A stretch of DNA of 64,000 bases. Source: Antedon mediterranea. Its lineage: Eukaryota; Animalia; Echinodermata. How positions within the stretch are numbered: position 1 is the stretch's first letter; every line of letters starts with the position of its first letter. Under the pieces are notes generated by a model. It was not told the DNA's origin. It saw nothing but the letters and a program-made list of their open reading frames with translations, and searched no databases. The stretch lies in NCBI RefSeq assembly GCF_964355755.1, contig NC_092677.1, forward strand, positions 16,700,101 to 16,764,100, in the 5' to 3' direction. Of this stretch, positions 16,943 to 49,750 are shown piece after piece. A program made the position numbers and the translations under genes.

Positions 16943-17042
16943 TAATGATATAAGTAGTTCTTTGATAGTAAACCAATAAAACTTACGTTGGCAAGACAGT
17001 TTCGTCTATTGGTTTACTATCAAAGAACTACTTATATCATTA
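16943..17042. repeat. Perfect 36 bp inverted repeat with 28 nt loop
   Basis: taatgatataagtagttctttgatagtaaaccaata (16943-16978) and its exact reverse complement (17007-17042). Confidence 0.95.
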
Positions 17043-18339: not shown

Positions 18340-20151
18340 TGAATACTCCCATTTTAAGAACTTCAAGCAAGGGTATGTCAAACCATTCATGTATTGAAAA
18401 TCATTTTTCTTTGTTTCTCAATCATAATCAATCTAGCCAAATCTATCAATATTACAAAGAGTGGGCAACAGACTTATGTGTTAGTTGGCTTTCATTCTAT
18501 TAATTCTATTCATGCCACTTTTATTAATTTCTTTTGGGTCTGAAAGAACTGAAATCAAGGAAGAATTCATGGCAGAACTTAAAGACATAAAACGTGGAGT
18601 ACAACACATCTATAATCACAGAGAAGGGAGTCAACGAACCTGATCTTACTGAACTAGATGAACTGCCTGTTGATTTACCTATAGTATCTTTGGAGGCATT
18701 GTTAGAGCTATAGGCATTACTGGACAAACCACCATGTAAACAAATGGTAAGTGTATTCTGTGAAGAACAGTACTTTGTTGTGGCCACTGATAATCAGTAT
18801 TGCCTTTATACTGCATAAAATGCATCATTAATATGTTGTAATGCTACTGTGTTTTATACAATTGATGAGTACTTTTATTTTAAATTAGATAGGCGTGCTA
18901 TGGTAAGCATCACCATTGCTTTAACACAGAATATGACCACGTCACACTGAAGATTGTATTAATTATCATAGAGTTCATGTGTTGCATATTGTACAATCAA
19001 TCAAAAGAATCTTCAATGTCTTATTTTACATTAAACATATTTTCAGATCGTAAAACTAGCGCTCATTGGTGGAAAAGATTGCAATTCGACAACCAAATGC
19101 ATTGGACTGTCTTCTCAAGCCAGCTGTGGCAAGACAGTTTAATTGGACTGGGGCAAAGGAAAAGAAGGAGCTTCGAAAACTAAATTTAATGAAAGTGATA
19201 ATAGGAGGTTTAGAGAAGAGCATTAAATTGGTACTCTTTTACGCCAACATTATATTGCAACAATTTCATCAGAAAAATCCTTTTGCAGGTTACAGCTAGT
19301 AACTATAGGACACAATAAATATTCACAAATAAATATTTATATACTGGGTCAAAAAACAATGTGGTCAAGTAAAATATTTTATTAGACAATTTGATTTGCC
19401 CTATTTTTTACAGGAGCAATTCGAAAAAATCCTAAATTAAATGATTCCACAAATGAGGATGTAATTGAGGCAGTAAAGACATATCTGTACAATTCTAGAG
19501 AAAAGGAGGTGGCAGAAAAGACAGACAGTCAAAGCAAATTGTTGTCTTTGACCTAAGTGACATTGTAGACTAATTGTGTTTGTATTTACATACACTAATG
19601 TACTTTCATTTCATATGTTCGATTTGTATATTTAAACAAGAGTCATTGTGTGGGATACAGCCATTTACCTACAGAAAAAGCATACACGATGACTATGGCA
19701 CAACTGGAAGAAAGATCTGAGAATACTGTACATCATACAGAAAGCAATAGACTGGCCAAAAATAAAGGCAGGAGATGCTGAATTATGTGATAATATTATA
19801 TATTCAATGTAATTAATACAACTCTTTAGATTGCTGGTTAAATACTAAAAGTAAAGTGGTACAATTCTTGAAAGTACAAAACATAACATGAACATAATGA
19901 CGATGACGTCATTTCTTATCAAAAGCATTCACATTACTTCGCTCGCATCACGTCAATATGCACAAACTGTTATCGTTATAGTTGAAGATTGAAGAATAAT
20001 TATAATTGTTTGTTAATTGAACGTTTTTGTGATTGATTCTGTTAATGGCACCCTTTGCTGATTCCTAATACTTACAGGACCCATTATGGTTCTTGGGTGC
20101 AACAACAACAGAATCACAATATTTTATTTAGGAATATGGCCCCCATATGGG
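18340..20151 (+). pseudogene. DUF4806 (BEN-like) spliced gene remnant, probably from an EnSpm/CACTA-like element; first, partial unit of the 3.4 kb array
   Basis: Exon remnants LDELPVDLPI, IVKLALIGGKD, LLKPAVARQFNWTGAKEKKELRKLNLMKVIIG, AIRKNPKLNDSTNEDVIEAVKTYLYNSRE..GGRK; stops and frameshifts; followed by cccatatggg subterminal-type motif. Confidence 0.7.
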
Positions 20152-20704
20152 GACTCAAAAGACAAGCTGAAATTATATTTTAATTAGATCGAGACAAGCA
20201 GAAATTTTATCAAATTATTACCATTGGATGAAGACAAAGAAGATAATCGAGGAAGACACAAAAGACAAGCTGAAATTATATTTGAATGAGATCGAGACAA
20301 GCAGAAATTTTATCAAATTATAACCATTGGATAAAGACAAAGAAGATAATCGAGGAAGACCCAAGAAGAATCAAAACAGAAGCAAGCGGACAAGAACTGT
20401 TTCGTTTGGACACTTTCAACTTCACGCCGTTTTTTTTTTCGATCGTTTTTTTTAACATTTACTTTTTGACCATTTTGAACATTGATGAACACCTTTCGCA
20501 TTTTTTGAATTCGTTGTTTGAACATTTATACATTTTTGAACACTTTTTGCTTTCCTTTAATTCATTTTTAATTGGATCCGAAGCATTTGGGGTAAGTCGA
20601 AACCATTTTGATTTTTGATTTGTAACCTTGATTGAAAAAGTGAGAGTTTACATATATATACACTAAATTGTTTTTGATATTTTGATTAATTAATATTATA
20701 AAGT

Positions 20705-21658
20705 ATGGTCGACGTTGTTGATAACGAAGTAATTTTAAATGAGCCCGTCAATCCACACCCCGTGCCCCACCTAAGACAAACCGATTTCCTTCCCAAAAGA
20801 TATGACGGTTCCATAACCGATCACGACCAATGTAGTGCACATTACTTATCGTTTACCGACTACCTTGAGGCCCACACTTTAGAAAACCCTGTAAACAATG
20901 CCCAATTAATTAATGTAATAAGTATTTTCAAACGTAGCCTTCAGGGCCAAGCTAGACTCTGGATTGAGAGAAAGCAGTTCGATTCACTAGAATCCTTAAA
21001 AACCCAATTCATCAACAGGTTTAGTAAAAACAAATCAATCTATGCGCACATAAGAGAATACGATTCAATTACATACACCACTGGCGACAACGCCGAAAAG
21101 CACTTAACCAAAATCAAACAAGCCGCAGACAGAATTGGATACGCTGACCAGCAGATAAAGAATAAATTTATTTCGACCCTTCCACCAAAATGTAGAGCAG
21201 CTGTAGCCATGTCCACCCCAATCGATGCCACTATTGACAATATCGTAAATAGCACACAAAATTACCTTGACCTTTCCGTAGATGATGCCACACGGGAAGT
21301 TTCATTCAACATCAATAAGGAAACAGATAATAGTCTCGAATCGCTCCAACATGAGATAAATTCTCTTAAGTTAGATATAGCCACAACAAAACGATCCCTT
21401 AATGATGATACTCGACGCTCACGTTCCCCCACCCGAAATTATATCCCAAGACGAAACCGAAGCCCAAGCCCCTACAAACCCCGATTCCAGACCCCATCGA
21501 CCCCAAGATATAGACAACCTCCCCCAACCTGTTATTACTGCGGGAAACCAGGCCACATAGCAAGGCACTGCCGACAACAAAACCGTTCTTACGGAAATTA
21601 TCCCCCGCCATACCCATATTCAAACAATTACTACCCTAGCCACCAGCAGGATTTTTAA
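20705..21658 (+). CDS. gag: Gypsy Gag (317 aa) with CCHC zinc knuckle
   Basis: Intact ORF; SLQGQARLW capsid-like motif; CYYCGKPGHIARHC. Confidence 0.93.
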   Translation: MVDVVDNEVILNEPVNPHPVPHLRQTDFLPKRYDGSITDHDQCSAHYLSFTDYLEAHTLENPVNNAQLINVISIFKRSLQGQARLWIERKQFDSLESLKTQFINRFSKNKSIYAHIREYDSITYTTGDNAEKHLTKIKQAADRIGYADQQIKNKFISTLPPKCRAAVAMSTPIDATIDNIVNSTQNYLDLSVDDATREVSFNINKETDNSLESLQHEINSLKLDIATTKRSLNDDTRRSRSPTRNYIPRRNRSPSPYKPRFQTPSTPRYRQPPPTCYYCGKPGHIARHCRQQNRSYGNYPPPYPYSNNYYPSHQQDF

Positions 21659-21694
21659 AAAGGGGACTAGATGCCGCCTATAATCTGGCCCCCC
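21649..21694 (+). promoter_or_regulatory. Putative -1 ribosomal frameshift signal between gag and pol
   Basis: G GAT TTT heptamer just before the gag TAA, 6 nt spacer, stem ggggactagat/atctggccccc; pol lies in the -1 frame. Confidence 0.7.
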
Positions 21695-24600
21695 ATACTA
21701 AATACGACAATTTTAAGGCAAAATACTTAGGGAATTAAGATAATATTGATTTGTTACTTAACGACAGAAATTACGTTAAAGGAAATTTACCAGATGGTAG
21801 AAATGTTTTAACTTTATTTGACAGTGGTTCAACTAGAACTATAATCTCACAATCGTACGTTAATTCCTCACTTTATTTATCGCGTCAAAAACCAATTAAA
21901 GTGAACACAACTAAATTTAGATTAGGTAACGGTGACTTCTTATATTCCAACCACTTAGTGCAATTCGAATTATTTATCCAAGGACACAAATTTAAAATTT
22001 CAGCATTAATCGTAAAAAATTTGACAGGTATTGACCTGATACTTGGAACCGAAACATTGTCTGAACTCGACGGTACTTTAAATTTTAAGGAAAACACCTT
22101 TCGCATTAGACCAAAGATTTTTAGCTTTCGTCCTGTCCACAAGATTTTTCTTAAACCCGGTGATACTAAAACAGTTAAATTAAAAGGAAGGGTTCCCGCC
22201 TTTGTACGCAATTTTGATGTTGTTCTACATACAACTACCCATATTTCAAAACTTTGTCCATCAGATATGTTAGTAAAATTACATAGAGGAGAAACCAACA
22301 TTGATATCACTAACAACACAAACAGAAACGTATCTCTAAATACACATCAACCTATCGCGAGCCTTCACTTAACCAACCTTGTAACAGTTACTAACGACCT
22401 ACCAATAGATAGAATAAAGTTGACCAATGACAACGCAAACAAGTACCCACATTTAGAACGTACAGACCCATTGCTATCTTTAACCGAGGAAGAAATAATC
22501 AGAAAACAAGTTGATTTAACAGACAGCGTTTTAACACATAGAGAAAAAGAAGATTTGTATAAAACCTTACAACAAAACAGAAACGCATTTTCACTTTATG
22601 GTGAACTATCTAGCTGCCCAAACTTCAAAGCTGACATACACCTCTCTAACGATGAACCATTTTTTATTCGACCATACTTCGCGACAGACAAAGACAAACA
22701 TGTTATTGAGGCTGAATTGAACAAATTAGTCAAATTAGGAATCTTAGCAGTAGGACACCAATCGTATACTTCCCCTGTCCTTCTTGTTTCAAAGAAAAAT
22801 TCAAAAGATAAAAGAGTTGTCACAGACTTCCGCTATCTCAATTCCAGGATAAAACGTATTAATCACCCATTCCCATTATTGGCCGAAACTTTGAAAACAA
22901 TAGGTAACGCTAATGCACAGATTCTTAGCGTAATTGATTTGAAATCAGCGTTCCACTGTGTACCATTAGCCGAACATGCCCAACAATACACAGGTATAGC
23001 TTCATATCATGGTGGAAAGCATTATTATTATAAGAGATTAGCACAAGGATTAAACGTTTCGCCAGGTATATTTCAAGCAAAGATTGACGAAATTTTAAAT
23101 GAAATCCCAAATTCTAGAGAATTCTGTATCGCCCATCATGATGATATTATTTTATTTAGCCAAGACAAATTTGCTCATAAGCAGCACCTCGTTTCCGTTT
23201 TACAAGCCCTACAATTAAATGGTTTTAGAATTTGCCCAAAGAAATGTAAGTTATTCAAGAATAAAGTGCAATATATGGGACACACCATCCTGATTAATTC
23301 TTCAGGACACGCATGTATCACACCATTAGGCGACAGGTGTGCAGCTATCCGAAATTTGCCAGTCCCACGAACCCATAAAGAAACTAAACGATTTATTGGT
23401 GCAGTAAATTATGTATCCCATTTTTTCCCTCAAATACAATCAATTTTACGTCCGTTACATACACTCGCAAGTAAACGCCGAAAATTTGTTTGGTCTACTT
23501 AACACCAGAAAGCATTTGACGAAATTAAACAATTAATGGTTAAACCACCAACTCTTCAAATGCCTAGAAAAGAAGGTAGATTTACGCTATATAGCGACAC
23601 TTCCAGAACCGCAACAGGTTCATATTTAACACAAACAGTAAACGGTAAAGAACACATAATAGGTTATTATTCCAAAATCTTACCACAAGCCTGTCAACGA
23701 TATAGCGTCACAGAATTAGAGTTATTTGGACTTTACATTAACGTTTCAGCATTTCGACATTTACTAAAGGGTTGCGAATTTGATGCATTCGTAGACCACT
23801 CAGCAATTGTACAAATTTGGAATTCAAAAGATCAGCCATCCCCGTTTACAGAAACTAATATTACGATTGTCCGGATACATTTTCCAAATTGGTTATAAGA
23901 AAGGAACTGAATTAGTTTTAGCAGATTTTCTCTCCCGAGCCCCTTGTGATGACGATTCCGAAATCGATCAAGTTGTACCCATTGCATTTAATATTACAGA
24001 GACTGAATCTATTAACCCGATTACAAACACATCTACTAGCAGACCAGTAACAAGGTCCTACGCCAAGAAAATGGGAATAAATATACCTGACCTACATAAA
24101 CCCAAACCAGTACAAACGCCCGTCATTAATCAAAATCCAGTGACAACAAACACGCGACCTACACCTCAACCTACCGCTACACCACAGATAATCATGAGAC
24201 AACAAACAAACGCACATCGATCACCGCCTATCATAACGCCACCTATCGTAACACCACCCCCAATACGTAATGTAAACATTCGACAACCTCCAGAGGAACG
24301 ACTAGTAGACAAAAATAAGCTAAGCAAAGATACTACACATCGAAATGTACCAGTTGAATTGTATACATCGCCCAAACCACTAGTACCCAACATAACTGAA
24401 TTTAAGTCAGCACACATCCCAAAACAACAAGACCTAGATAGATTAATGGATGTTATTCAAAGAAAGATAATTAGAGATTATAACCTCCCAGTAGATGTTA
24501 AACAATTACGTGTTGAACAAGAAACTTCACCATTCTTTAAGCCAGTTTACGATTATTTAGCTCATGATATCCTTCCAGCTGATAAGAAAGCAGCTCGTGC

Positions 24601-26358
24601 AGTTCAGAATAAGTCAGAGCAGTACATATTGTGCAACGGTTTACTATTCCGTTTATTTTTCCAAGATAAAGGTGGAGAATTTGTATTGCAATTAGCTGTT
24701 CCTGAAAACTTAGCAGAGACTGTTATTTCTCAGTATCACGACAATTTGTTAAGTAGCCACCAAGGTACGATGCGTACTTACCTTACTATTAGGAAATTAT
24801 TTTACATGCCCCTTATGTTCGAGAAAGTCAACAATTATACCCAAGCGTGTCTTAGATGTCAACAATTTCGTCCCAAAACCGATAAATTACGTCCTTTACA
24901 CGATCGAGTACCAGCAACTTACCGTCCCTTTCATACACTCAGTCTAGATTTTAAGAGTATGCCAACTTCACCTTCAGGTTTTAAACATATTATGGTAGTA
25001 TGTGATGAGATAACTAGATTTTTGATTTGTGTACCTTTGAAATCCATTGATGCCGAAACAATTTGTGAAGCACTAATTCAAAAGGTAATCAGTATTTTTG
25101 GACCCCCATCTCGTCTTATTTCAGATGCAGCAACCTCCCTTACAGGAAAATTATTAACACTATTATGTAACACCCTTAATATTGATAGGAAAATCATCAG
25201 CGTCCACAATCACGGTAGTTTACAAGTTGAACGTCATATCCGCACCGTATCGGACCTGTTAAAGGTCAACCTTAACCAATTCGGAACAGATTGGGTTAGA
25301 TTTGTATCAACAACATGTTATGCTTATAACTCGTTTTCATCCCCACATCTAGGAAACCACTCCCCTTACGAATTAGTTTTTGGCCGCCAACCTCCAAGTT
25401 TGACCTCATTAGCATTTAACCCTATTTCAGGATTGTCTCATTCCTATGAAGAATACTTTGAACATCTCAAGAAGAAATTTCAAAACATTTCACAGACAAT
25501 GCTACAATTACAGCGAACACAACAAAACGTCCAAAACTCAAAGATTTCCCAACGCTTAGAAAAAAGTCCAATTTACTCAGTAGGACAACTCGTATATTTA
25601 TACAAGCCAACATCATCATCACTAACGGCAAATTCAAAGAAAATCGCCGCAGAATGGGTCGGACCATTAGTGATTCATGAAGTACTAGACAGAACACACT
25701 ACATCCTAGCGACGATTAAAGGAGAAATACTTCGCGACGTATTCAATTATAACAGACTGAAACCCTGTTTTATGAGAACGCCTAAAGAACGCAAAAATTT
25801 TACACATCTACAAAAACTTAAACAATTGTTGAATGAACCCACCGATGATAATAACGAGAAAATCCAAAACACCATTAATGTAGTAAATGACGAAACCAAT
25901 GTCGAATTTGTAGACGAACATGATAGGACACCAGCCCAATTGCAATCAGATACCCTTACACATCCAACTAAGATAGACCCCTTAACTTGCAACCTTACAT
26001 TGACTGTGTAGAGAATAACATGGGATTAGCAGCCCCATTCCAAATGAAAGAAGAACAAATTAAGGAACAAACTAATTTAATTATGACAGCACCTAATGAT
26101 TCAAATATGACATTAAACCGAGGTAGATTTAAAGCAGGACATTTCCAAGTTTTAGTTTCGTATTCTAAACCGACTTCAGCCAAACGCAACACCGATAAAA
26201 CAAAACACGAATCTAATGATCGCAAATTTTGGTGGAATATTGACAGATATAACGATACAGATAAATTGATTAAAGAGATCATTAAAGATAAACAGATACT
26301 GATAAGTGGATCGCCAAAACGATTCATAAAACGTTTGTATAATGCAACAAATTACTGA
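21652..26358 (+). pseudogene. pol: Gypsy Pol (protease, RT, RNase H, integrase, C-terminal extension) with few lesions
   Basis: LFDSGS; IDLKSAFH, LAQGLNVSPGIFQ, HHDD; LYSDTS, ELELFG, VDHSA; H-H-C-C and D-D-E. Stops at 21736 and 23500; frameshifts near 23835 and 25985. Confidence 0.92.
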
Positions 26359-27276
26359 TTTAATTTTTTGCAAGAAATTTTTTTTAATTACGACATTTGC
26401 TAAATTAATGATAGCATAGTCTACGTATTTGATGAGATTTGTTAAATAATAATGTGATTTCAGTTAAAAGAGAATTGAATTTATGTTTAAGTATTGATTT
26501 TGTAACGAGTTTTTTGATAATGATTAACTTTGAATTTTGAATGATCGATATATTGAGATATTAAAAGGAACGACAAGCATTTTGTAACAAATATTTTGTT
26601 TAACCTTTGAGTCGTCAATCTCAAGCATTACTTAATTGATATACAATAACAGGAGATTTTCTTAGTACTTTTAATTTCAATTTTTTTTTTAAATTGAGTA
26701 CAAAAGTCGAATTTGTCGACCGATTGAAATCGTAATTACCTGTAAATATAAATGCTTAAATCGATAAAGTTGTGACGATAATGATATATTGTGGATAAGT
26801 TTGTGTCAACAGGACACACACACATTTGTTTCTTTAAAGTTTTAAGTGATTAAGTTTGATATTTGATTTTAGGCTAATCAGCCACAGTTTCTTGAGTTTT
26901 ATGTTTTGATTTGATTGATTTATGTTTGAAGGCCATTAGAACGCGATGAGTTGTCGCACGATTTGATGTATGTTCAATGTAACATACTATTTTTAAGTTT
27001 TGTAATTTTATTTTCAACCGATTTATGTTTGATTTACGCGAATTTTTATACCAAATTCATTTTTAATTTTAATTTTTTTAAAGAGAGAGAAGAGAGAAGA
27101 GAGAGAGTGAAAGTGATAAGGTTACACTTCAGAGTCAATGGTTTTGGCTAACTCAATTTTTGCTTATATGTATAATAATGTTTTTTTTCTTTTATATAAC
27201 TTTAATTTTGCATGCCACTATTATAACCATTTTATATGTTAAATAGATTAGAAAAAAAAAAAGGGAAACAGAGAGA

Positions 27277-27915
27277 TGTAATATAACGATATACTTTTAT
27301 ATTTAAGAAATCGACCTTTGTATCGGAATTCAAATAAGTTCACAAACTTGACCCAGAAAGTCCAGAGGAGAGTTTGTCCAGATGTTTTAATGACCATTTA
27401 GTTTATAATAGAATCCCTAAAGAAAACACTTAGCTTAATTTTGTGACTTTTCCCATCGTTAAACCAGGAGTGATTGACACTATTTAAGTACAGATTTGAC
27501 AGTGTCATCCATCACAGAAATACCTTATTATACCGTTAATCACTCCCACTTAAACACCCCTGGATCAACTTAGGACCAATCGTTACCCTCACAGATTACG
27601 TAGTGACATATGCAAATGAACCGAGGGCCAATATACTCCCAAGTTTCAGAAGGGCCCAGACACACCTTACAGCCACCTCACGGAGCACACACCTTACAGC
27701 CACTTCACGGAGCACACACCTCACAGCCACTTCTTCAGAAGCAGACCTACACACTTCACACCTCACCGACAGCATCATTGACCCTCCGTTCCTTATCTAT
27801 ACTTATAGTTGTATATTGTACTGAAGTATTATACTGAATAAACAATATATGTGTTACGACAGTCAAGCGAGTCAGAGTCTTCATTAGTACCTCAACAACG
27901 CAACACTATATTACA
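27277..27915 (+). repeat. 3' LTR (639 bp)
   Basis: TGTAATATA...TATATTACA inverted termini; polypurine tract aaaaaaaaaaagggaaacagagaga immediately upstream; internal 27 bp tandem repeats (27661-27740); AATAAA near 27837. Confidence 0.92.
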
Positions 27916-28369
27916 GTATGTCAAACCATTCATGCATTGCAAATCATTTTTCTTATGTTTTTCAGCCATTAATATCAAAATGAGTGGGTAACAGACTTGT
28001 GTGTTAGTTGGCTTTCATTCTATTAATTCCATCCATGCCACTTTTATTAATTTCTTTAGGGTTTGAAAGAACTGTGGTTCAGCTACAGAAATCAAGGCAG
28101 AACTTAAAGACATAAAACGTATTAAAGTTGACTATAACACATCTATAATCACAGAGAAGGGCATCAACAAACCTGATCTTATTGAACTAGATGAGCTGCC
28201 TGTTGATTTACCAATATTATCTTAAGAGGCATTGTTGGAGCTATAGGCATTACTGGACAAACCACCGTGTAAACAAATGGTAAGTGTATTCTGGCCACTG
28301 ATAATTAGTATCAGTATTGCCTTTATACTGCATGAAATGCATCATTACTATGTTGTAATGCTACTGTGT

Positions 28370-28680
28370 AGAATATAAATAAACCTGAAATTGTAGAAAG
28401 CACGGAGAAAAACAAATTTCCTAATATTTTTCGGCCTGTGCAGTTACGAGATCGATGAGTTCACGTAACCAAGTTGATATTGATTTATCTCGTATCTTAT
28501 CGGACACTAAATTGTAGTCAAAGACTGTTTCCTAGCTTGCCTTTAGACAGTAAAACCTTTCTACTTGCTCAACGCGAGGACATCTAAATTAAGCAGTATA
28601 CCCGTTGGTTTCTTTTTCCAATCTGATATTTTTATGTGAAAAGGCTCCCGCCGATAAAGGATTGGAGGGTACGAAAATTG
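28370..28680 (+). mobile_element. Short Gypsy pol fragment (Gmr1-like, protease-integrase linker) inside a DUF4806 intron; also ~31790-32139 and ~35218-35567
   Basis: ACAVTRSMS, LPLDSKTFLLAQRED, PVGFFFQSDIFM, PADKDWRV motifs. Confidence 0.65.
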
Positions 28681-30109
28681 TATTTTAAATTTAAGATAGG
28701 CGTCATAGTAAGCATCACCATTGCTTTAACCCAAAATATGACCACGTCACACTAAAGATTGTATTAATTATCATAGAGTTCATGGTGTTGCATATTGTAC
28801 AATCAATCAAAAGAATCTTCAATGTATTATTTTACATTTAACATATTTTTAGATCGTAAAACTAGCGCTCATTGGCGGAAAAGATTGCAATTAGACAACC
28901 AAATGCATTGGACTGTCTTCTCAAGCCAGCTGTGGCAAGACAGTTTAATTGAACTGGGGCAGAGGAAAAGAAGGAGCTTCGAAAACTAATTTTAATGAAA
29001 GTGATAATAGGAGGTTTAGAGAAGAGCATTAAAATGGTACCCTTTTACGCCAACATTATATTGCAACAATTTCATCAGAAAAATACTTTTTGCAGGTTAC
29101 AGTAACTATAGGACACAATAAATATTCACAAATAAATATTTATATACTGGGTCAAAAAACAATGTGGTCAAGTAAAATATTTTAAGACAATTTGATTTGT
29201 CCTATTTTTAACAGGAGCAATTCGAAAAAATCCTAAATTAAATGATTCCACAAATGAGGATGTAATTGAGGCAGTAAAGACATATCTATAACAACTCCCT
29301 GTCTATACAATTCTAGAGAAAAGGAGGTGGCAGAAAAGACAGACAGTCAAAGCAAATTGTTGTCCTTGACCTAAGTAACATTGTAGACTAATTGTGTTTA
29401 TATTTACATACACTAATGTACTTTTATTTCATATGTTCGATTTGTATATTTAAAAAAGTCATTGTGTAGGATACAGCCATTTACCTACAGAAAAAGCATA
29501 CACGATGACTATGGCACAACTGGAAGAAAGATCTGAGAATACTGTACATCATACAGAAAGCAATAGACTGGCCCAAAATAAAGACAGGAGATGCTGAATT
29601 ATGACATAATTGTGATAATATTATATATTCAATGTAATTAATACAACTCTTTAGGTTGCTGGTTAAATACTAAAAGTAAAGTGGTACAATTCTTGAAAGT
29701 ACAAAACATAACATGAACATAATGACGATGACGTCATTTCTTATCAAAAGCATTCACATTACTTCACTCGCATCACGTCAATATGCACAAACTGTTATCG
29801 TTATAGTTGAAGATTGAAGAATAATTATAATTGTTTGTTAATTGAACGTTTGTGTGATTGATTCTGTTGATGGCACCCTTTGCTGATTCCTAATACTTAC
29901 AGGACCCATTATGGTTCTTGGGTGCAACAACAACAGAATCACAATATTTTATTTAGGAATATGGCCCTCATATGGGATTTATATGAGCTAAATGGGCTTT
30001 CCCATATGGTACCCATATGATTATTGGGTTAAAAAAAAATTGGAATCATATGGTACCCACCCATAAGTTGTACCAAGTTGTACAGTACCATTTGGGCTTG
30101 GTACATGGA

Positions 30110-33600: not shown

Positions 33601-36600
33601 ATCTTGCTCCACGTGCGTGTGCCTGCTGTGATGAAACATTAATAATTCATCTCCTGTGTATTCTAGATAACAGTTAAATCCAGGACATTCACGTCATCTC
33701 ATGATGGTATCACTGAAATTGTAAAAGGTCTAAGAAAACCCATGCAAACAATAAAAGAATTTTTTAAGTGGAAACACCAGAATACAGTAAATTTATGAGC
33801 AGTTCATATTATAATGAATACCAACTCTGAAGAGGAACAGATGACATACCTGGATGATGATGAAAAAAAAGGGAAGCTATTACAGAGTCATTGAGTAGGA
33901 TACAGCCATTTACCTACAGAAAAACATACGCGATGACTATGGCACAACTAGAAGAGAGATCTGGTGAATGTATTGCCAGTGAATACTGTACATCATACAG
34001 AAAGCAATAAACTGGCCCAAAATAAAGGAAGGAGATGCTGAAGCTTTGAATGAGAAAGAGAGAAATATTTTTAAGAGAGAAACATTTAAATTTATCAGAT
34101 GAATAGATGAAACATGTATAATACCATCATCACGAACGCTAAACATATCGCACTTAAGACTTCTCCAATCAGAGAGATTATTGTCTATGCATACCAAAGT
34201 GTACATAGACTTACTTAGTCTCTTGATCATTGTCAGATTCGGATAGAGCTCTTTGCTACAGGATATCAAAGTCTAGACGAAGAAGGTTTCCACACCACGT
34301 CAAACATCTTCTCTTTAATATAACTGTGCTCCACTTTTCCTTGTTTGTGCTGTGTATTCTTATTCATTATAATCTTTATAAGCTGTGCTGCCATATTTTA
34401 ATGAAATTGATTCTTTTATAATAATGCAATGTTTTTACTTGATATATTGTATAGAATTGGTTGTGCGTGTTGTAAAGTGATAATTATGTGATAATATTAT
34501 ATTCAATGGAATAATACAACTCTTTATAATTAGATTGCTGGTTAAATACTAAAAGTAAAGTGGTACAACTTGAGTACAAAACATGAACATAATAAATGAG
34601 ACGTCATTTCTTATCAAGAGCATTCCATTACTTTGCTCGCATCACGCGAATATGCACAAACAATTATCGATATAGTTGAAGATTAAAGAATATAATTGTT
34701 TGTTAATCGTATCTTTGTTTGTGTGATTCCTGAATACTCCCATTTTAAGAACTTCAAGCAAGGGTATGTCAAACCATTCATGCATTGAAAATCATTTTTC
34801 TTATGTTTTTCAGCCATTAATATCAAAATGAGTGGGTAACAGACTTGTGTGTTAGTTGGCTTTCATTCTATTAATTCCATCCATGCCACTTTTATTAATT
34901 TCTTTAGGGTTTGAAAGAACTGTGGTTCAGCTACAGAAATCAAGGCAGAACTTAAAGACATAAAACGTATTAAAGTTGACTATAACACATCTATAATCAC
35001 AGAGAAGGGCATCAACAAACCTGATCTTATTGAACTAGATGAGCTGCCTGTTGATTTACCAATATTATCTTAAGAGGCATTGTTGGAGCTATAGGCATTA
35101 CTGGACAAACCACCGTGTAAACAAATGGTAAGTGTATTCTGGCCACTGATAATTAGTATCAGTATTGCCTTTATACTGCATGAAATGCATCATTAATATG
35201 TTGTAATGCTACTGTGTAGAATATAAATAAACCTCAAATTGTAGAAAGCACGGAGAAAAACAAATTTTCTAATATTTTTCGGCCTGTGCAGTTACGAGAT
35301 CGATGAGTTCACGTAACCAAGTTGATATTGATTTATCTCGTATCTTATCGGACACTAAATTGTAGTCAAAGACTGTTTCCTAGCTTGCCTTTAGACAGTA
35401 AAACCTTTCTACTTGCTCAACGCGAGGACATCTAAATTAAGCATTTAGCTGAAAAGGCCCCAAGTGATTTCATGACATTTGTAGTATACCTGTTGGTTTC
35501 TTTTTCCAATCTGATATTTTTATGTGAAAAGGCTCCCGCCGATAAGGATTGGAGGGTACGAAAATTGTATTTTAAATTTAAGATAGGCGTCATAGTAAGC
35601 ATCACCATTGCTTTAACCCAAAATATGACCACGTCACACTAAAGATTGTATTAATTATCATAGAGTTCATGGTGTTGCATATTGTACAATCAATCAAAAG
35701 AATCTTCAATGTATTATTTTACATTTAACATATTTTTAGATCGTAAAACTAGCGCTCATTGGCGGAAAAGATTGCAATTAGACAACCAAATGCATTAGAC
35801 TGTCTTCTCAAGCCAGCTGTGGCAAGACAGTTTAATTGAACTAGGGCAAAGGAAAAGAAGGAGCTTCGAAAACTAATTTTAATGAAAGTGATAATAGGAG
35901 GTTTAGAGAAGAGCATTAAAATGGTACCCTTTTACGCCAACATTATATTGCAACAATTTCATCAGAAAAATACTTTTTGCAGGTTACAGTAACTATAGGA
36001 CACAATAAATATTCACAAATAAATATTTATATACTGGGTCAAAAAACAATGTGGTCAAGTAAAATATTTTAAGACAATTTGATTTGTCCTATTTTTAACA
36101 GGAGCAATTCGAAAAAAATCCTAAATTAAATGATTCCACAAATGAGGATGTAATTGAGGCAGTAAAGACATATCTGTACAATTCTAGAGAAAAGGAGGTG
36201 GCAGAAAAGACAGACAGTCAAAGCAAATTGTTGTCCTTGACCTAAGTAACATTGTAGACTAATTGTGTTTATATTTACATACACTAATGTACTTTTATTT
36301 CATATGTTCGATTTGTATATTTAAAAAAGTCATTGTGTAGGATACAGCCATTTACCTACAGAAAAAGCATACACGATGACTATGGCACAACTGGAAGAAA
36401 GATCTGAGAATACTGTACATCATACAGAAAGCAATAGACTGGCCCAAAATAAAGACAGGAGATGCTGAATTATGTGATAATATTATATATTCAATGTAAT
36501 TAATACAACTCTTTAGGTTGCTGGTTAAATACTAAAAGTAAAGTGGTACAATTCTTGAAAGTACAAAACATAACATGAACATAATGACGATGACGTCATT

Positions 36601-37999
36601 TCTTATCAAAAGCATTCACATTACTTCGCTCGCATCACGTCAATATGCACAAACTGTTATCGTTATAGTTGAAGATTGAAGAATAATTATAATTGTTTGT
36701 TAATTGAACGTTTGTGTGATTGATTCTGTTGATGGCACCCTTTGCTGATTCCTAATACTTACAGGACCCATTATGGTTCTTGGGTGCAACAACAACAGAA
36801 TCACAATATTTTATTTAGGAATATGGCCCTCATATGGGATTTATATGAGCTAAATGGGCTTTCCCATATGGTACCCATATGATTATTGGGTTAAAAAAAA
36901 TTGGAATCATATGGTACCCACCCATAAGTTGTACCAAGTTGTACAGTACCATTTGGGCTTGGTACATGGAAGTCGTTCAAACCATGCCATTGGAGACCAA
37001 TGGTCATCATTCAAATCAACAAAATTAGATCTTGCTCCACGTGCGTGTGCCTGCTGTGATGAAACATTAATAATTCATCTCCTGTGTATTCTAGATAACA
37101 GTTAAATCCAGGACATTCACGTCATCTCATGATGGTATCACTGAAATTGTAAAAGGTCTAAGAAAACCCATGCAAACAATAAAAGAATTTTTTAAGTGGA
37201 AACACCAGAATACTGTAAATTTATGAGCAGTTCATATTATAATGAATACCAACTCTGAAGAGGAACAGATGACATACATTTAACATATTTTTAGATCGTA
37301 AAAAGTGATAATAGGTAGGTTTAGAGAAGAGCATTAAAATGGTACCCTTTTACGCCAACATTATATTACAACAATTTAAAAACACAATAACTATTCATAA
37401 CACCGTGCTGTCCTGTTTAGAGATTATTGTCTATGCATACCAAAGTGTACATTTACTAGTCTCTTGATCCTTGTCAGATTTGAATAAAGCACCTTGCTAC
37501 AGGATATCAGAGTCTAGACGAAGATTTCCACACAATGCTGTCAGTATTGTGTTTGTGCCAAAAGAGTGAGGAATATTGCTAACCAAAAATGGGTAACCAG
37601 CAATGAACGGAAAAACGTGGTGGGGCAAGAAGGAATCCACAATACAACAATCTTTCGGGCCGAATAAAGACCACATTACTAGATTTTAAAAAAAAAAGTA
37701 CCTACAAGATGAACAAAATGTATTTAAGCAAGAAATTGGCAAACAGATGTTCAATATCAATACTATGGAATTTTTATCTTTCATTCGGAAATCCACGGAA
37801 AGATGTACTTGTTTGTTCCTTTTGTGTGAAGAAAAAAAGAAAAATAACAACTGGTCCATTTTGTGGGTTTAGCGGGTGGGAAAAATTGGAAAGATAACAA
37901 TGGAAATTGCTGTATTTTATATGCCAGGATATGACGGTACTCGCGTGAAATTGTCCAATTGCCAGATTGGAAAGAAATAGTGGTTACTACTGAATACTA

Positions 38000-38406
38000 C
38001 CCTGATGAGACCAGTGGCTCAAAGCCTAGAACGTCCAAGACAACCTCTGTTACCAATACCAGTTCAATCAGTACAAGCAACTTCTGTTACCAAGACCAGT
38101 TCAATCAGTACAAATTTACACTCTTTAATATCAATTAAAAGGGGTAGCAATATTCACAGAACAATTACCCAACCTATTAATTGAAGATAGGACCAGAGAT
38201 GTGCAGCACATATTAAGTTGTAGCAATTCCTACAGTTTTTGACGATAGTTCGAAATCTTGGAAGAAGTGCACAAAAACTGATGTTGAACCTGCAAAGAGA
38301 GTGTCAGACACCAGCAAGTGGATTTAAAGAACTGAAAGAACAATTCAAAAATGTGTTCTCTGGTGACCCTTTATTGGATTTTTATCAGAGAATACAAATA
38401 CAGGGC
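38000..38406 (+). mobile_element. PNMA-like Gypsy gag capsid fragment, one per unit of array B
   Basis: IFTGQSSNLMIEDWTRDVQHIL (last-unit variant), IVRNLGRSAQKLML, TPASGFKELKEQF, DPLLDFYQRIQ. Confidence 0.65.
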
Positions 38407-41400
38407 AAATTCTTATTCATTATAATCTTTATAAGCTGTGCTGCCATATTTAATGAAAATGATTCATTTATAATAATGCAATGTTTTTTCTTTATATATT
38501 GTATAGAATTGGTTGTGCAGGTTTTAAAGTAATTATGTGATAATATTATATTCAATGTAATTAATACAACTCTTTATAATTAGGTTGCTGGTTAAATACT
38601 AACAGTAAAGTGGTACAACTTGAGTACAAAACATAACATGAGCATAATTTTGAAACGAAATAAAAGCATTCACATTACTTCACTCGCATCACGTGGATAT
38701 GCACGAACAGTTATTGAGTGAATACTGTACATCATACAGAAAGCAATAGACTGGCCCAAAATAAAGGCAGGAGATACTGAAGCTTTGAATAAGAAAGAGA
38801 GAAATATTTTCAATAGAGAAACAATTAAAATTATCACATGAATAGATAAAAAACATGATCTCTGAATATAGCGCACTCCAATCAGAGAGATTATTGTCTA
38901 TGCATACCAAAGTGTACATAGACTTACTTAGTCTCTTGATCATTGTCAGATTCGGATAGAGCTCTTTGCTACAGGATATCAGAGTCTAGACGAAGAAGGT
39001 TTCCACACCATGTCAAGCGTCTTCTCTTTAATATAACTCTGCTCCACCTTTTCTTGTTTGTGTATTAATTACAAATTAAAAGGTTATGAAAAGGTAAAGA
39101 TTTTAATCTGAGGTTTTCTTATTTTTCTTTTAGGCAACAAACCAAGAGGGATATGGGATTGAAGTAAGACTTTACTGTCAATATTGTGTGTTTGTGCCAA
39201 AAGAGTGAGGAATATTGCTAACCAAGAATGGGTAACCAGCAATGAACGGAAAAACGTGGTGGGGCAAGAAGGAATCCCCAATACAACAATCTTTCGGGCC
39301 GAATAAAGTCCACATTAGTAGATTTAGGGTGTAATAACTCCATACAGAAAGTACCTACAAGATGAACAAAATGTATTTAAGCAAGAAATTGGCAAATAGA
39401 TGTTCAATATCAATACTATGGAATTTTTACCTTTCATTCGGAAACCCACGGAAAGATGTACTTGTATGTTCCTTTTGTGTGAATAAAAAAAGAAAAATAA
39501 CAACTGGTCCATTTTGTGGGTTTAGCGGGTGGGAAAAATTGGAAAGATAACAATGGAAATTGCTGTATTTTATATGCCAGGATATGACGGTACTCGCGTG
39601 AAATTGTCCAATTGCCAGATTGGAGAGAAATAGTGGTTACTACTGTACACTACCCTGATGAGACCAGTGGCTCAAAGCCTAGAACGTCCAAGCCAAACTC
39701 TGTTACCAAGACCAGTTCAATCAGTACAAATTTACACTCTTTAATATCAATTAAAAGGGGTAGCAATATTCACAGAACAATCACCCAACCTACTGATTGA
39801 AGATTGGACCAGAGATGTGCAGCACATATTAAGTTGTAGCAATTCCTACAGTTTTTGACAATAGTTCGAAATCTTGGAAGAATTGCACAAAAACTTATGT
39901 TGAACCTGCAAAGAGAGTGTCAGACACCAGCAAGTGGATTTAAAGAACTGAAAGAACAATTCAAAAATGTGTTCTCTGGTGACCCTTATTGGATTTTTAT
40001 CAGAGAATACAAATACAGGGCAAATTCTTATTCATTATAATCTTTATAAGCTGTGCTGCCATATTTAATGAAAATGATTCATTTATAATAATGCAATGTT
40101 TTTTCTTTATATATTGTATAGAATTGGTTGTGCAGGTTTTAAAGTAATTATGTGATAATATTATATTCAATGTAATTAATACAACTCTTTATAATTAGGT
40201 TGCTGGTTAAATACTAACAGTAAAGTGGTACAACTTGAGTACAAAACATAACATGAGCATAATTTTGAAACGAAATAAAAGCATTCACATTACTTCACTC
40301 GCATCACGTGGATATGCACGAACAGTTATTGAGTGAATACTGTACATCATACAGAAAGCAATAGACTGGCCCAAAATAAAGGCAGGAGATACTGAAGCTT
40401 TGAATAAGAAAGAGAGAAATATTTTCAATAGAGAAACATTTAAAATTATCACATGAATAGATAAAAAACATGATCTCTGAATATAGCGCACTCCAATCAG
40501 AGAGATTATTGTCTATGCATACCAAAGTGTACATAGACTTACTTAGTCTCTTGATCATTGTCAGATTCGGATAGAGCTCTTTGCTACAGGATATCAGAGT
40601 CTAGACGAAGAAGGTTTCCACACCATGTCAAGCGTCTTCTCTTTAATATAACTCTGCTCCACCTTTTCTTGTTTGTGTATTAATTAAAAATTAAAAGGTT
40701 ATGAAAAGGTAAAGATTTTAATCTGAGGTTTTCTTATTTTTCTTTTAGGCAACAAACCAAGAGGAATATGGGATTGAAGTAAGACTTTACTGTCAATATT
40801 GTGTGTTTGTGCCAAAAGAGTGAGGAATATTGCTAACCAAGAATGGGTAACCAGCAATGAACGGAAAAACGTGGTGGGGCAAGAAGGAATCCCCAATACA
40901 ACAATCTTTCGGGCCGAATAAAGTCCACATTAGTAGATTTAGGGTGTAATAACTCCATACAGAAAGTACCTACAAGATGAACAAAATGTATTTAAGCAAG
41001 AAATTGGCAAATAGATGTTCAATATCAATACTATGGAATTTTTACCTTTCATTCGGAAACCCACGGAAAGATGTACTTGTATGTTCCTTTTGTGTGAATA
41101 AAAAAAGAAAAATAACAACTGGTCCATTTTGTGGGTTTAGCGGGTGGGAAAAATTGGAAAGATAACAATGGAAATTGCTGTATTTTATATGCCAGGATAT
41201 GACGGTACTCGTGTGAAATTGTCCAATTGCCAGATTGGAGAGAAATAGTGGTTACTACTGTACACTACCCTGATGAGACCAGTGGCTCAAAGCCTAGAAC
41301 GTCCAAGCCAACCTCTGTTACCAAGACCAGTTCAATCAGTACAAGCAACTTCTGTTACCAAGACCAGTTCAATCAGTACAAATTTACACTCTTTAATATC

Positions 41401-44078
41401 AATTAAAAGGGGTAGCAATATTCACAGAACAATCACCCAACCTACTGATTGAAGATTGGACCAGAGATGTGCAGCACATATTAAGTTGTAGCAATTCCTA
41501 CAGTTTTTGACAATAGTTCGAAATCTTGGAAGAATTGCACAAAAACTTATGTTGAACCTGCAAAGAGAGTGTCAAACACCAGCAAGTGGATTTAAAGAAC
41601 TGAAAGAACAATTCAAAAATGTGTTCTCTGGTGACCCTTATTGGATTTTTATCACAGAATACAAATACAGGGCAAATTCTTATTCATTATAATCTTTATA
41701 AGCTGTGCTGCCATATTTAATGAAAATGATTCATTTATAATAATGCAATGTTTTTTCTTTATATATTGTATAGAATTGGTTGTGCAGGTTTTAAAGTAAT
41801 TATGTGATAATATTATATTCAATGCAATTAATACAACTCTTTATAATTAGGTTGCTGGTTAAATACTAACAGTAAAGTGGTACAACTTGAGTACAAAACA
41901 TAACATGAGCATAATTTTGAAACGAAATAAAAGCATTCACATTACTTCACTCGCATCACGTGGATATTGAGTGAATACTGTACATCATACAGAAAGCAAT
42001 AGACTGGCCCAAAATAAAGGCAGGAGATACTGAAGCTTTGAATAAGAAAGAGAGAAATATTTTCAATAGAGAAACATTTAAAATTATCACATGAATAGAT
42101 AAAAAACATGATCTCTGAATATAGCGCACTCCAATCAGAGAGATTATTGTCTATGCATACCAAAGTGTACATAGACTTACTTAGTCTCTTGATCATTGTC
42201 AGATTCGGATAGAGCTCTTTGCTACAGGATATCAGAGTCTAGACGAAGAAGGTTTCCACACCATGTCAAGCGTCTTCTCTTTAATATAACTCTGCTCCAC
42301 CTTTTCTTGTTTGTGTATTAATTACAAATAAAAAGGTTATGAAAAGGTAAAGATTTTAATCTTAGGTTTTCTTATTTTTCTTTTAGGCAACAAACCAAGA
42401 GGGATATGGGATTGAAGTAAGACTTTACTGTCAATATTGTGTGTTTGTGCCAAAAGAGTGAGGAATATTGCTAACCAAGAATGGGTAACCAGCAATGAAC
42501 GGAAAAACGTGGTGGGGCAAGAAGGAATCCCCAATACAACAATCTTTCGGGCCGAATAAAGTCCACATTAGTAGATTTAGGGTGTAATAACTCCATACAG
42601 AAAGTACCTACAAGATGAACAAAATGTATTTAAGCAAGAAATTGGCAAATAGATGTTCAATATCAATACTATGGAATTTTTACCTTTCATTCGGAAACCC
42701 ACGGAAAGATGTACTTGTATGTTCCTTTTGTGTGAATAAAAAAAGAAAAATAACAACTGGTCCATTTTGTGGGTTTAGCGGGTGGGAAAAATTGGAAAGA
42801 TAACAATGGAAATTGCTGTATTTTATATGCCAGGATATGACGGTACTCGCGTGAAATTGTCCAATTGCCAGATTGGAGAGAAATAGTGGTTACTACTGTA
42901 CACACCCTGATGAGACCAGTGGCTCAAAGCCTAGAACGTCCAAGCCAACCTCTGTTACCAAGACCAGTTCAATCAGTACAAGCAACTTCTGTTACCAAGA
43001 CCAGTTCAATCAGTACAAATTTACACTCTTTAATATCAATTAAAAGGGGTAGCAATATTCACAGAACAATCACCCAACCTATTGATTGAAGATTGGACCA
43101 GAGATGTGCAGCACATATTAAGTTGTAGCAATTCCTACAGTTTTTGACAATAGTTCGAAATCTTGGAAGAATTGCACAAAAACTGATGTTGAACCTGCAA
43201 AGAGAGTGTCAGACACCAGCAAGTGGATTTAAAGAACTGAAAGTACAATTCAAAAATGTGTTCTCTGGTGACCCTTTATTGGATTTTTATCAGAGAATAC
43301 AAATACAGGGCAAATTCTTATTCATTATAATCTTTATAAGCTGTGCTGCCATATTTAATGAAAATGATTCATTTATAATAATGCAATATTTTTCTTTATA
43401 TATTGTATAGAATTGGTTGTGCGTGTTGTAAAGTAATTATCTGATAATATAATATTCAATGTAATTAATACAACTCTTTATAATTAGGTTGCTGGTTAAA
43501 TACTAAGAGTAAAGTGGTACAACTTGAGTACAAAACATAACATGAGCATAATTTTGAAACGAAATAAAAGCATTCACATTACTTTACTCGCATCACGCGG
43601 ATATGCACGAACAGTTATTGAGTGAATACTGTACATCATACAGAAAGCAATAGACTGGCCCAAAATAAAGGCAGGAGATACTGAAGCTTTGAATAAGAAA
43701 GAGAGAAATATTTTCAATAGAGAAACATCAAAAATTATCAGATGAATAGATAAAAAACATGAACTCTGAATATAGCGCACTCCAATCAGAGCGATTATTG
43801 TCTATGCATACCAAAGTGTACATAGACTTACTTAGTCTCTTGATCCTTGTCAGATTCGGATAGAGCTCTTCGCTACAGGATATCAGAGTCTAGACGAAGA
43901 AGGTTTCCACACCATGTCAAGCCTCTTCTCTTTAATATAACTCTTCTCCACCTTTCCTTGTTTGTGTATTAATTACAAATTAAAAGGTTATGAAAAGGTA
44001 AAGATTTTAATCTTTGGTTTTCTTATTTTTCTTTTAGGCAACAAACCAAGAGGGATATGGGATTGAAGTAAGACTTTA

Positions 44079-44580
44079 CTGTCAATATTGTGTCCCAGAA
44101 TGAAAAAACATGGTGGGGCAAGAAGGAATCCCTTAATACAACAATCTTTTGGGCAGAATAAAGCCAACATTAGTAGATTTAGGGCGTAATAACTCCATAC
44201 AGAAAGTACCTACCAGGTGAACAAAATGTACCAGCAACAAATGGGCAAATAGATGTTCAATATCAATACTATGGAATTGTTATGACATCCATGCCATCAA
44301 CCTTTCATTCGGAAACCCATGGAAAGATGTACATGTATGTTCCTTTTGTGTGAAGAAAAAAAAGTAAAATTAGAACCACAGGAAACCCAGAAGTTAAACG
44401 AGAATTGACAACTGAATTAATTCATCACAAAATGAGAGCAAACAAATTATAATCTCTACTGAAGGACATTTATGATGTAACAGTGTTTACAGTGTCATTC
44501 GACTTCATGCTAAATAAGGCACTTCCGAAATATCCGATCGGTAAGCTTACTATGCAAGGCTTGGCATCATTGCTCATTGA
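44079..44580 (+). mobile_element. Sola-like DNA transposase fragment; shorter versions in upstream units
   Basis: EKRGGARR (upstream units), YRKYLP, NLSFGNPWKDV.VCSFC, ELIHHKMRANK, TVSFDFMLNKALPK, AYYAR. Confidence 0.65.
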
Positions 44581-45022
44581 CTAGGTTAGCTTACATGACA
44601 CATAAATTCTTTATCGAGGTTTCCATAACAACTAGCTCATTGTGTGGGTTTAGCGGGTGGGAAAATTGGATAGATAATTAAATTTACAATGGAAAATTTG
44701 CTGTATATAATATGACAGGATATGGCGGTACTTGTGAAATTGTCCGACCAAAAAAATCCCCATATTGGAGAGAAATAGTGGTTACTATACTCTCCTTATG
44801 AGACCAGTGTCTCAAAGTCTAGAAACTCCAAGTCAACCTCTGTTACCAAGACCAGTTCAATCAGTACAAATTTACACCCTAGCATATCAATTAAAAGGGG
44901 TACCAATATTCACAGGACAATCATCTAACCTAATGATTGAGGATTGGACAAGAGATGTGCAGCACATATTAAGTTGTATAGGAACCTACAGTTTTTGACG
45001 ATAGTTTAAAATCTTGGAGGAA

Positions 45023-45324
45023 CTGAAAAAGAACTAGTTGCTGCATCGTTGTCAAAAACCACATCGAAGCAATATACAGCTAACTGGAAATGCTTAGCTT
45101 TACACGGTTTAAAAACACCAAATCACAGCCTGTCGCTACCAGAAAACGGGCATGCCATTATTAGGCAGTACGTTACATATCTTCATACACAAGGGCTTGC
45201 GCCAAGTACCATAAGGACATACCTCAGTGCTGTATCATTCATGCACAATATCAATCTATTTGAAGACCCTACAGCATTTTGTTTAAAAATTCATTTATCA
45301 GCTCTCAAGAATATTTTAGATTAG
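45023..45324 (+). mobile_element. DIRS/Ngaro-type tyrosine recombinase N-terminal (SAM-like) fragment
   Basis: LVAASLSKTTSKQYTANW...YVTYLHTQGLAPSTIRTYLSAVSFMH...EDPT. Confidence 0.75.
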
Positions 45325-45409
45325 TAATTTAGTGCATCGTTTTGTTTAAAAAAATTATTATCTGTATACCAATAACGTAAATTTGACATTATTGGTAATA
45401 ATAAGCATA

Positions 45410-46562
45410 CTCCAAGTAGGAAAAGAAAGTTTTGTGGTAACAGGTATACAAAATTATCAAATGTTCCTGTTGGATAGCCAGAGGAACTACAGCCTGCGCC
45501 ATCTTCTGCATCAGCCAAAAAATTGAAGAATGCCTGAAGAATGTGACATATCAACTTAAGAAGGTTTAACAGGATTCTTATTTATAACAATAGAAATCCT
45601 AACTGTCCTTATAAACCAATGTTCATCATAGGGATTTACAATTAGACATGGCAACGATATCAAGCGCGGGCTTGCCCAACAGTTAGATGTTCAGTGTAAT
45701 TCATGCTGTTACAAAGACACATTTTATAACAGTGGAAAGGTTGGCACAACAGGTGTATTTGAAGTGAACATGCGCATTGTTATGGCATTCTGCAACATTT
45801 CTAAAGGATTTGAGGCCCTGAAATCATTTTGCGGCATTATGAATATGCCAAAATGTCCTCAAGATCATAATACTACCTTGTGACAAAACTTTTAAGTGCA
45901 TTTAATTACCAGGCTACTGAAAGCATAAAGGAAGCTGGCAGTGATGTCCGTAAACAAGGAAAACAAAGTGCAATATCTGTAGCTGGTACATGGCAGCGAC
46001 GTGGCCGGCATCATAACAATTCTATCTATTCTTACTGGCAAGGTTCTTGATGTATATGTAATGTCAAAAAAATGTAAAAGCTGTGAAACATGGGAAAAAC
46101 GGACAAGAACACAATAAAATACTAACAGTGGGCAGCTAATTACAAATGCCCAGTCAACCATAAGGGTAGCTCCGGATCGATGGAACCTGCTGGCGCCAAA
46201 GAGATGTTCCATATGTCAGAATCATTAAATGGACTGCAGTATACAGAATATATTGGAGATGGGGAGTAATTTGGCAGCGGGCAAACAAAACAGTGGAATT
46301 GGCCACAAATTGGGCAGTTTGCAACTTCAATGATGGGAGGGGGATATCGATATTAAAAATGTTAACTCCTTGAACATTATCCCTGGCAGTTACACCAACC
46401 GATTTGTCACAAAACTGGACAATAAGCGGTCAACTATGGCAAATCGCGCTTCTTCGACGCCAGTCAAAAAGCGTCGAAAGCAACTAAGGGCAATTAAAAA
46501 GGGCTTTGCTGACAAAAATGCAGAGAAAGAAGGTGTAACCTACTTAGCTGGTGCATTCTAAA
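45410..46562 (+). mobile_element. Deleted Mutator-like/Kolobok-like transposase
   Basis: RKRKFCGNRYT, SASAKKL, FEVNMRIVMAF, FCGIMNMP, GTWQRRG, TGKVLDV.VMSKKCKSC, NHKGSSGSMEPAGA, YTEYIGDG, C-terminus EGVTYLAGAF*. Confidence 0.85.
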
Positions 46563-47616
46563 CCATTATTCTTAGAAGTTTTCCATACAAATTATTGATA
46601 AACTACATTTGCATCTGTATTAGACTACTTTATAAACTAAAACGTGTGATTTCTCAGTTTCATAAATACTATAGCTCCTACTTGTCTGAAATTTGCTGAG
46701 TATCTTCCCAGTATATGTATAGAGGGCTAAAATAATTCAAATTGTTCAATTCATTAAGAAATTATTGCTTTATGAATACGTAATTAGGCAGGTCAATTTT
46801 ATTTTTTTTATTTATAGAAGAATAATTTTGTTCTGTTACATGTGTTTAATTCAATTTAGTTCAGGACCTGTATCTTTAAAAGAGCTTTAAAATGATATAT
46901 TGTATGACCACTTTCCATTAGCCAATATTTATTTATATTAAAAAAACCAGTATGCAAATTACGGTAATTAATTATGAATATATAATTAGCTAATTTGCAT
47001 ATATTATAATTATTATTGTTCCATTTTACTTGTTCTTTCAATAAATCCAAAAATCTTTGAAAAAAAGTAAAAATTGTGGATTTTTTTTCTCTGTACTGTA
47101 ATACCTTAACTATCTTTATTGTAATGATAGATGCAATACATGCCAAATGAATGAGAGGAAAAGCAATTGCTCAATTATTTGCTGTCCGTATTTACAGTAT
47201 CTCTACACATGCTTTTACTAAATAAATGTTATATTTAAACCCGGTTTCCAAAATGAATTTTTAACATGCTGTAAAGACAGAGTTGGATAAAAGTAAACTA
47301 ATAATTAATGAATGTTTATGAGTTGAATAGAACAATCTTTGATTAAATAGAACATACAATCATTCAACAAAAGAACTATTGTCGCGAGGTGTTTTCCAGA
47401 TTAATCATACGATCAAAACGAAGAAGTACTGATGAAGAACTCAATCTGTGGCGACTGTAGAATGGACCAGAGACCTGACTTTCTTCAACTTTTAAATGTT
47501 GTTGATGTTGAGATACTAAACTAATGCTTTTTAATTGTAGAATTGCACTGTAAACCCTCTGTTGTCAGTGATTCATAAAATTACCTGGTGCAGACAGCCC
47601 TGTGTCTGACTGCATG

Positions 47617-49700: not shown

Positions 49701-49750
<50 letters not shown>

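Follow-up and report, generated by a model that had tools for sequence, protein, structure and literature searches.

The window analyzed here is a stretch of 64,000 nucleotides from the crinoid Antedon mediterranea (contig NC_092677.1 of assembly GCF_964355755.1, positions 16,700,101 to 16,764,100), and the focal stretch runs from position 18340 to position 46800 of this window (28,461 bases). It is occupied by an array of transposon remains located about 1 kb behind the stop codon of a minus-strand lipid-metabolism host gene similar to phosphoethanolamine N-methyltransferase (PEAMT), which points into the array (Table 1). An initial annotation had described the stretch as a mosaic of co-oriented fragments from at least eight transposon families, resembling the uni-strand clusters that give rise to PIWI-interacting RNAs (piRNAs). 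The mosaic itself was borne out, as the stretch is almost entirely transposon derived and its old pieces, all short, abut one another with no termini to be seen. We consider the locus a candidate read-through piRNA cluster, although a smaller one, with fewer independent pieces, than the initial annotation suggested.

The identity of the host gene was established with the minus-strand exon at 50218 to 50442, which as a query retrieved a single protein (P0001, named phosphoethanolamine N-methyltransferase-like, Antedon mediterranea, by NCBI). This protein matched 10 exons from 53865 to 47620 with identities of 91 to 100%. The stop codon lies near 47617 on the minus strand and the last transposase piece ends near 46560, which places the array directly downstream of the host gene, the arrangement of the piRNA clusters downstream of genes (piC-DoGs) known from mammals (see below). 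The neighbor of the array on the left is a plus-strand gene with DED and LRR domains. No transposon domain was found among the open reading frames (ORFs) scanned in the PEAMT introns and the right flank.

Table 1. Features of the array and its host gene (positions in the window; o/e, observed/expected ratio; LTR, long terminal repeat; UTR, untranslated region)
Feature	Position	Strand	Remarks
PEAMT-like host gene	47617..53865	-	10 or more coding exons; may drive a read-through transcript
PEAMT 3' UTR and spacer	46561..47616	-	six minus-strand AATAAA/ATTAAA; CpG o/e 0.47; no CpG-rich gap before the array
Older unit A copy	17800..20151	+	most complete intron-bearing DUF4806-like gene (name presumed); 18339-20151 80-96% identical to unit A (self-BLAST)
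Gypsy retrotransposon	20152..27915	+	gag, pol, small third ORF, polypurine tract, 3' LTR 27278-27915; 5' LTR absent
Tandem array A	27916..37277	+	~2.7 units of ~3.43 kb, 97-98% identity (self-BLAST)
308-bp younger insert	28370..28677	.	in units A1-A3, absent from left A copy; CpG o/e 1.23
U-A4-A5-P-U block	29606..31301	+	"BEL gag" plus "Gmr1-like pol" of the initial annotation; one prejoined unit between two U copies
Tandem array B	37538..44376	+	~4.2 units of ~1.63 kb (self-BLAST)
Older copy, with fewer deletions, of Sola-like and gag-like pieces (both names presumed)	44098..45035	+	76-83% to unit B pieces; translation
Tyrosine recombinase N-terminal piece	45036..45320	+	Phage_int_SAM_4 at 45010-45321, E 9.2e-4, 20 bits (below the 27-bit cutoff); E 0.017 in read-through frames
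Mutator-like transposase, broken	45380..46560	+	PF20700 x3 in 45632-46266, E 2.6e-11, 8.8e-6, 1.4e-9

Gene and array share a marked loss of CpG dinucleotides. The old nonredundant pieces have a CpG o/e of 0.47 (131 versus 275.9 expected), compared to 0.94 in the flanks (424 versus 450.8 expected; p=7e-13), and with values of 0.45 in the PEAMT body and 0.47 in the spacer, the depletion is unbroken from the gene through the old pieces. The domain ends on the left at ~17.5 kb, where the ratio returns to ~1, and a CpG-normal gap (0.98, 15.7 to 17.7 kb) separates the array from the plus-strand LRR gene. Equally broken Gypsy debris outside the domain (4.4 to 5.7 kb) keeps its CpG (1.03), indicating that transposon origin alone is insufficient for the loss, and the young inserts within the domain are undepleted (0.92 to 1.23, with 0.99 for the Gypsy element). 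Between duplicates, 19 CpG transitions were counted versus 9.7 expected (p=0.005), the controls (3 versus 2.5) being too few to carry much weight. Depletion might alternatively stem from CpG-poor parent elements. In a sea star, methylation reaches 44 to 50% in genic regions and 11.8% in intergenic repeats (PMC12550476). We infer that the array has long been within a transcribed unit continuous with PEAMT. Just left of the domain edge, there is also an inverted repeat whose 36-nt arms match perfectly and enclose a loop of 28 nt (16943 to 17042).

The same footprint could be the work of transcription along the plus strand, present or past, starting either from a promoter near 17 kb (that of the DUF4806-like gene) or from the 3' LTR of the Gypsy element, in which case a sense transcript would cause the methylation and small RNAs, if produced, would derive from the sense strand or from both strands. 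The CpG-poor domain starts right after the CpG-normal 16 to 17.5 kb, ahead of a spliced plus-strand gene, and the Gypsy 3' LTR is directed into array A. However, the DUF4806-like gene carries stops and frameshifts, the CpG profile shows no boundary toward PEAMT, and such a transcript gives no reason for keeping sense insertions; we regard this scenario as improbable, the least likely of the alternatives discussed.

A large part of the array, overlooked in the initial annotation, is duplication. As many as 14,716 of the 28,461 bases (52%) repeat an earlier same-strand copy, while unique Gypsy sequence makes up 7,649 bases (27%) and unique old debris only 6,096. The description of the stretch as mostly fragments without their own termini is thus valid for the old pieces but leaves out both this duplication and one near-complete Gypsy element. 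All long repeats inside the focal stretch are direct (self-BLAST). The unit of array A contains DUF4806-like exons, the 308-bp insert (whose faint look of a hAT C terminus on the plus strand is a presumption of ours) and the U-A4-A5-P-U block, which may be either a small nonautonomous LTR element or an old local repeat. The unit of array B includes Sola-like, gag-like, BEL-gag-like (38280 to 38408), U and P pieces, and its neighboring copies differ by 8 to 27 substitutions per ~1,600 sites. Pieces P and U are common to both units, in swapped order. The array A junction (31330>27916) is present in sequencing runs X1 and X5, from two studies, ruling out an assembly artifact as the source of the arrays, and the array B junction (44362>42760) is present in run X1. 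Run X5 was considered as a source of RNA and rejected, as it behaves like DNA: a PEAMT intron is covered by its contigs, and none of the 15 joints listed (of 48) was spliced.

Such an organization does not fit a library comparable to CRISPR spacers, as had been proposed. There is no repeat-spacer order, the repeats are whole multipiece units in shuffled order, the piece with introns arrived in the form of DNA, and close dispersed relatives of the old pieces were absent from contigs of the same organism. They seem better read as ordinary insertions trimmed by deletion and shuffled by tandem duplication.

To assign strands, the nonredundant part was scanned against Pfam using 199 stop-free ORFs from both strands, together with 30 frames of read-through translation with X at stops (six frames over units A and B, the left copy and the tail). 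Transposon domains appeared on the plus strand only: the Gypsy gag and pol (20702 to 26008), PF20700 and Phage_int_SAM_4. No transposon domain was detected on the minus strand in either set; six minus-strand ORFs had Pfam matches, all below the curated cutoffs and none to a transposon family. The read-through frames added no domain on either strand. The DUF4806-like gene (17.8 to 19.55 kb) is oriented by its splice donors and acceptors, which can be read directly on the plus strand (e.g., 18747, 19047 and 19414). The coding-like pieces have a positive AT skew, but this sign would equally be expected from transcription of the minus strand. A k-mer strand classifier did not pass hold-out validation (at best 27 of 42 chunks), and its plus scores for the coding-like pieces were discarded.

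Among the eight or more families first listed, three are supported by Pfam (Gypsy, Mutator-like and, weakly, the recombinase N terminus). The names DUF4806, BEL gag, Gmr1 pol, Sola and PNMA-like gag are our presumptions from motifs seen by eye on the plus strand, unconfirmed by searches, and so are "DIRS-like" for the recombinase piece and "Kolobok" for the Mutator-like piece, whose termini were not found. PF20700 has no mention in the accessible text of a Kolobok paper (PMC9587614), and that label stays a presumption. Protein searches with HMMER (one unit B frame), with a DUF4806-like exon and with the A5-P frame gave nothing, although long-protein word searches are weak when blank. In the Atlas, the Sola-like ORF scored 0.94 to eukaryotic clusters, with minority DUF4371 and zf-C17orf113 labels (4 of 10 agreeing), and the gag-like ORF scored below 0.9; both are leads only. 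The Gypsy proteins of the window did not match piece P by tblastn, and a literature search on Sola and DUF4806 returned nothing usable.

Every piece that can be oriented lies on the plus strand, as had been claimed, but tool- or splice-site-based evidence is available for only four of them (the three Pfam families and the spliced gene), all antisense to PEAMT and none sense (p=0.125). The value of 0.008 initially given for eight independent insertions was overstated, because duplicated and prejoined pieces had been treated as independent, and duplication copies orientation automatically. Counting 7 to 8 pieces, with those of presumed name included, would give p=0.016 to 0.008, and the probability of at least one such run among 77 windows of this genome (one try each) is 0.45 to 0.70. 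Orientation alone is therefore not beyond chance. The plus-strand debris reported at 1 to 5.6 kb was recovered, as LINE (long interspersed nuclear element)-like sequence by eye at 1.3 to 2.2 kb and Gypsy debris at 4.4 to 5.7 kb.

Altogether, these figures leave some room for neutral debris, that is, a few old insertions that ended up on the same strand by chance, with duplication, deletion and recognition bias mimicking an ordered library. The high proportion of duplicated sequence, the small amount of unique old sequence, the equal orientation of the flanking debris and the duplication of the neighboring LRR genes are all in its favor. It does not account for a CpG loss that extends across the entire array while old debris outside is undepleted, nor for the lack of any minus-strand transposon match in the 199 ORFs and 30 frames, and we consider it unlikely.

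Comparison with other data sets indicates that the patchwork is old. The "BEL" and "Gmr1" pieces are found together on single contigs in organism C (1,322 nt, spanning 29660 to 30845) and organism B (536 nt, spanning 30032 to 30551), which means that they were already joined and must be counted once. Organism B also has, at single-copy depth (48.8 and 50.5, versus 48.7 for PEAMT), the same order of U, Sola-like and gag-like pieces and the junction from the DUF4806-like piece to P, with different deletions. The patchwork is thus older than the split from organism B. Steady deletion would explain the missing termini without a capture mechanism. The Mutator-like piece is barely covered by organism B contigs, although a hole in contigs proves nothing. 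In run X1, the DIRS-like and Mutator-like pieces have a depth of 38 to 46, near single copy, while units A and B (~90 to 100 and ~165, respectively) have depths in line with their local copy number, contrary to what a dispersed capture element of the Helitron or Pack type would show, although no systematic search for element ends was made. Piece U (43315 to 43530) reached a depth of up to ~4,700 in organism B, versus ~49 for single copy, and only its local copy number in organism A, reflecting the expansion of a family or satellite in one of the lineages.

The Gypsy element, adjoining the old copy of unit A at 20151, contrasts with these remains. It retains a Pfam set of zf-CCHC, protease, RVT_1, RNase H and integrase, and its pol is interrupted by a single in-frame stop (near 23500) and a single frameshift (near 23.8 kb). 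Contigs ~99% alike reached depths of 1,670 to 2,050 in run X1 versus 23 to 46 for stretches present once, roughly 40 to 90 times the single-copy contigs, and the depth over the LTR was much greater still, depth being a rough guide only. This points to a recently active family, and the Gypsy element would be the sole piece of the array with a clear present-day target. No relatives were found in viral contigs. Its third ORF (25972 to 26355, plus strand) encodes 128 amino acids and had no Pfam match.

Given these data, we see about an even chance that the array is a one-strand piRNA source, fed by run-on transcription of the minus-strand PEAMT, through which all identifiable transposon pieces would be read antisense. 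In the germ line, the polymerase would pass the PEAMT 3' end and continue to ~17.5 kb, and this would account for a methylation footprint resembling that of a gene body. Transposons would land one by one and antisense copies would be retained, deletions would strip their termini, and tandem duplication would multiply and shuffle the remains, while the run-on RNA would be cut into piRNAs. The Gypsy element would be the latest catch, and the remaining pieces an outdated record. The uni-strand cluster idea of the initial annotation gains an adjacent minus-strand gene and a CpG loss continuous with its body, and loses the library component.

Several observations weigh against this interpretation. 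No relatives of the old pieces at 85% identity or more were seen in X1 contigs, so these pieces would have nothing close to silence. The CpG loss is silent on which strand was transcribed, and a plus-strand transcript could begin at its left edge. Orientation rests on the four pieces mentioned above, and the plus-strand LINE-like and Gypsy debris on the left lies outside the CpG-poor domain. Minus-strand AATAAA signals are not depleted in the array (9 versus 9.3 expected), and the spacer contains six minus-strand polyadenylation signals. In mouse, transposon content behind a gene was no predictor of read-through (PMC11615739).

Some of these points would suit another situation, in which the array is a long run-on tail or an intron of the PEAMT unit that produces no piRNAs and from which sense insertions were purged as disturbing the transcript. 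Insertions within transcribed units are known to be biased toward antisense. Orientation and CpG loss would be explained equally well, and old pieces without close targets would pose no difficulty. Alone, this leaves unexplained why the stretch is nearly all transposon when the PEAMT introns and right flank yielded no transposon domain in the ORFs scanned, and we give it a low probability, no higher than that of neutral debris.

If the array does act as a read-through piRNA source, its closest counterparts would be the piC-DoGs of mouse, human and hamster (Konstantinidou et al. 2024, PMC11615739). Like the present array, these lie immediately downstream of a protein-coding gene and extend over tens of kilobases; they consist of densely packed transposon fragments antisense to that gene, an orientation seen here for the four pieces with tool or splice-site evidence. 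Here the host is an echinoderm, half of the array is tandem duplication and DNA transposons are mixed with retroelements; read-through and piRNAs were shown in mammals and are predicted here. The core piRNA clusters of mosquitoes (Qu et al., 10.1101/2022.08.22.504762) are made by read-through from an upstream gene, which yields a precursor of one strand across captured antisense sequence, as proposed here, but those clusters are enriched for nonretroviral viral pieces and were demonstrated by RNA and knockdown, and no viral piece was found here. A one-strand transposon bias that includes Gypsy also characterizes flamenco and the flam-like clusters of Drosophila (van Lopik et al. 2023, PMC10643416). 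The syntenic ones, however, span 227 to 1,085 kb and owe their bias to Gypsy alone, while the present array has ~28 to 29 kb, one Gypsy and mixed families, and does not belong with them. The uni-strand clusters of the slug Arion vulgaris (PMC11615739, accessible portion) provide a noninsect invertebrate case of minus-strand output over packed plus-strand transposon fragments, although piRNAs were sequenced there and no driving gene is described in that text. A literature search at title and abstract level yielded no crinoid piRNA-cluster study.

A broader and more tentative proposal, which we think possible but less than probable, is that animals in general, crinoids included, have long built piRNA clusters from transposon traps that are transcribed by read-through from housekeeping genes lying in front of them. 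Such traps would be visible in DNA as gene-body CpG loss continuing past the 3' end over antisense debris; duplication would raise the dose of the stored pieces, and the Gypsy element lacking its promoter LTR would have just been trapped. With read-through clusters described in mammals and mosquitoes, a crinoid case, if confirmed, would help decide between an old design and repeated origin. The locus lends itself to a sharp test, as the junctions of the array are unique, the proposed driver gene has a name and the predicted target is a single young Gypsy family; an array without any RNA would be an ordinary field of duplicated debris. The CpG footprint could also be a cheap way to flag such loci in species without small-RNA data.

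Other elements were observed around the array. The plus-strand gene on the left (7415 to 15197) is an NLR-like immune gene with DED-domain and LRR exons (59-amino-acid repeat), with partial LRR duplicates near 3.9 kb and at 7.4 to 8.1 kb. One PEAMT intron contains a GC-rich, CpG-normal element with terminal inverted repeats (52072 to 52834), likely a young nonautonomous DNA transposon, and a short intronic repeat at 48520 to 48750 is of very high copy number (depth of ~72,000 in run X1) and has a tail that by eye resembles a tRNA. A 1.6-kb element close to the 5' end of PEAMT lies between imperfect inverted repeats (53978 to 55623). Farther to the right, saposin-like exons on the minus strand (61999 to 63045) adjoin a palindromic tandem repeat (62947 to 63315).

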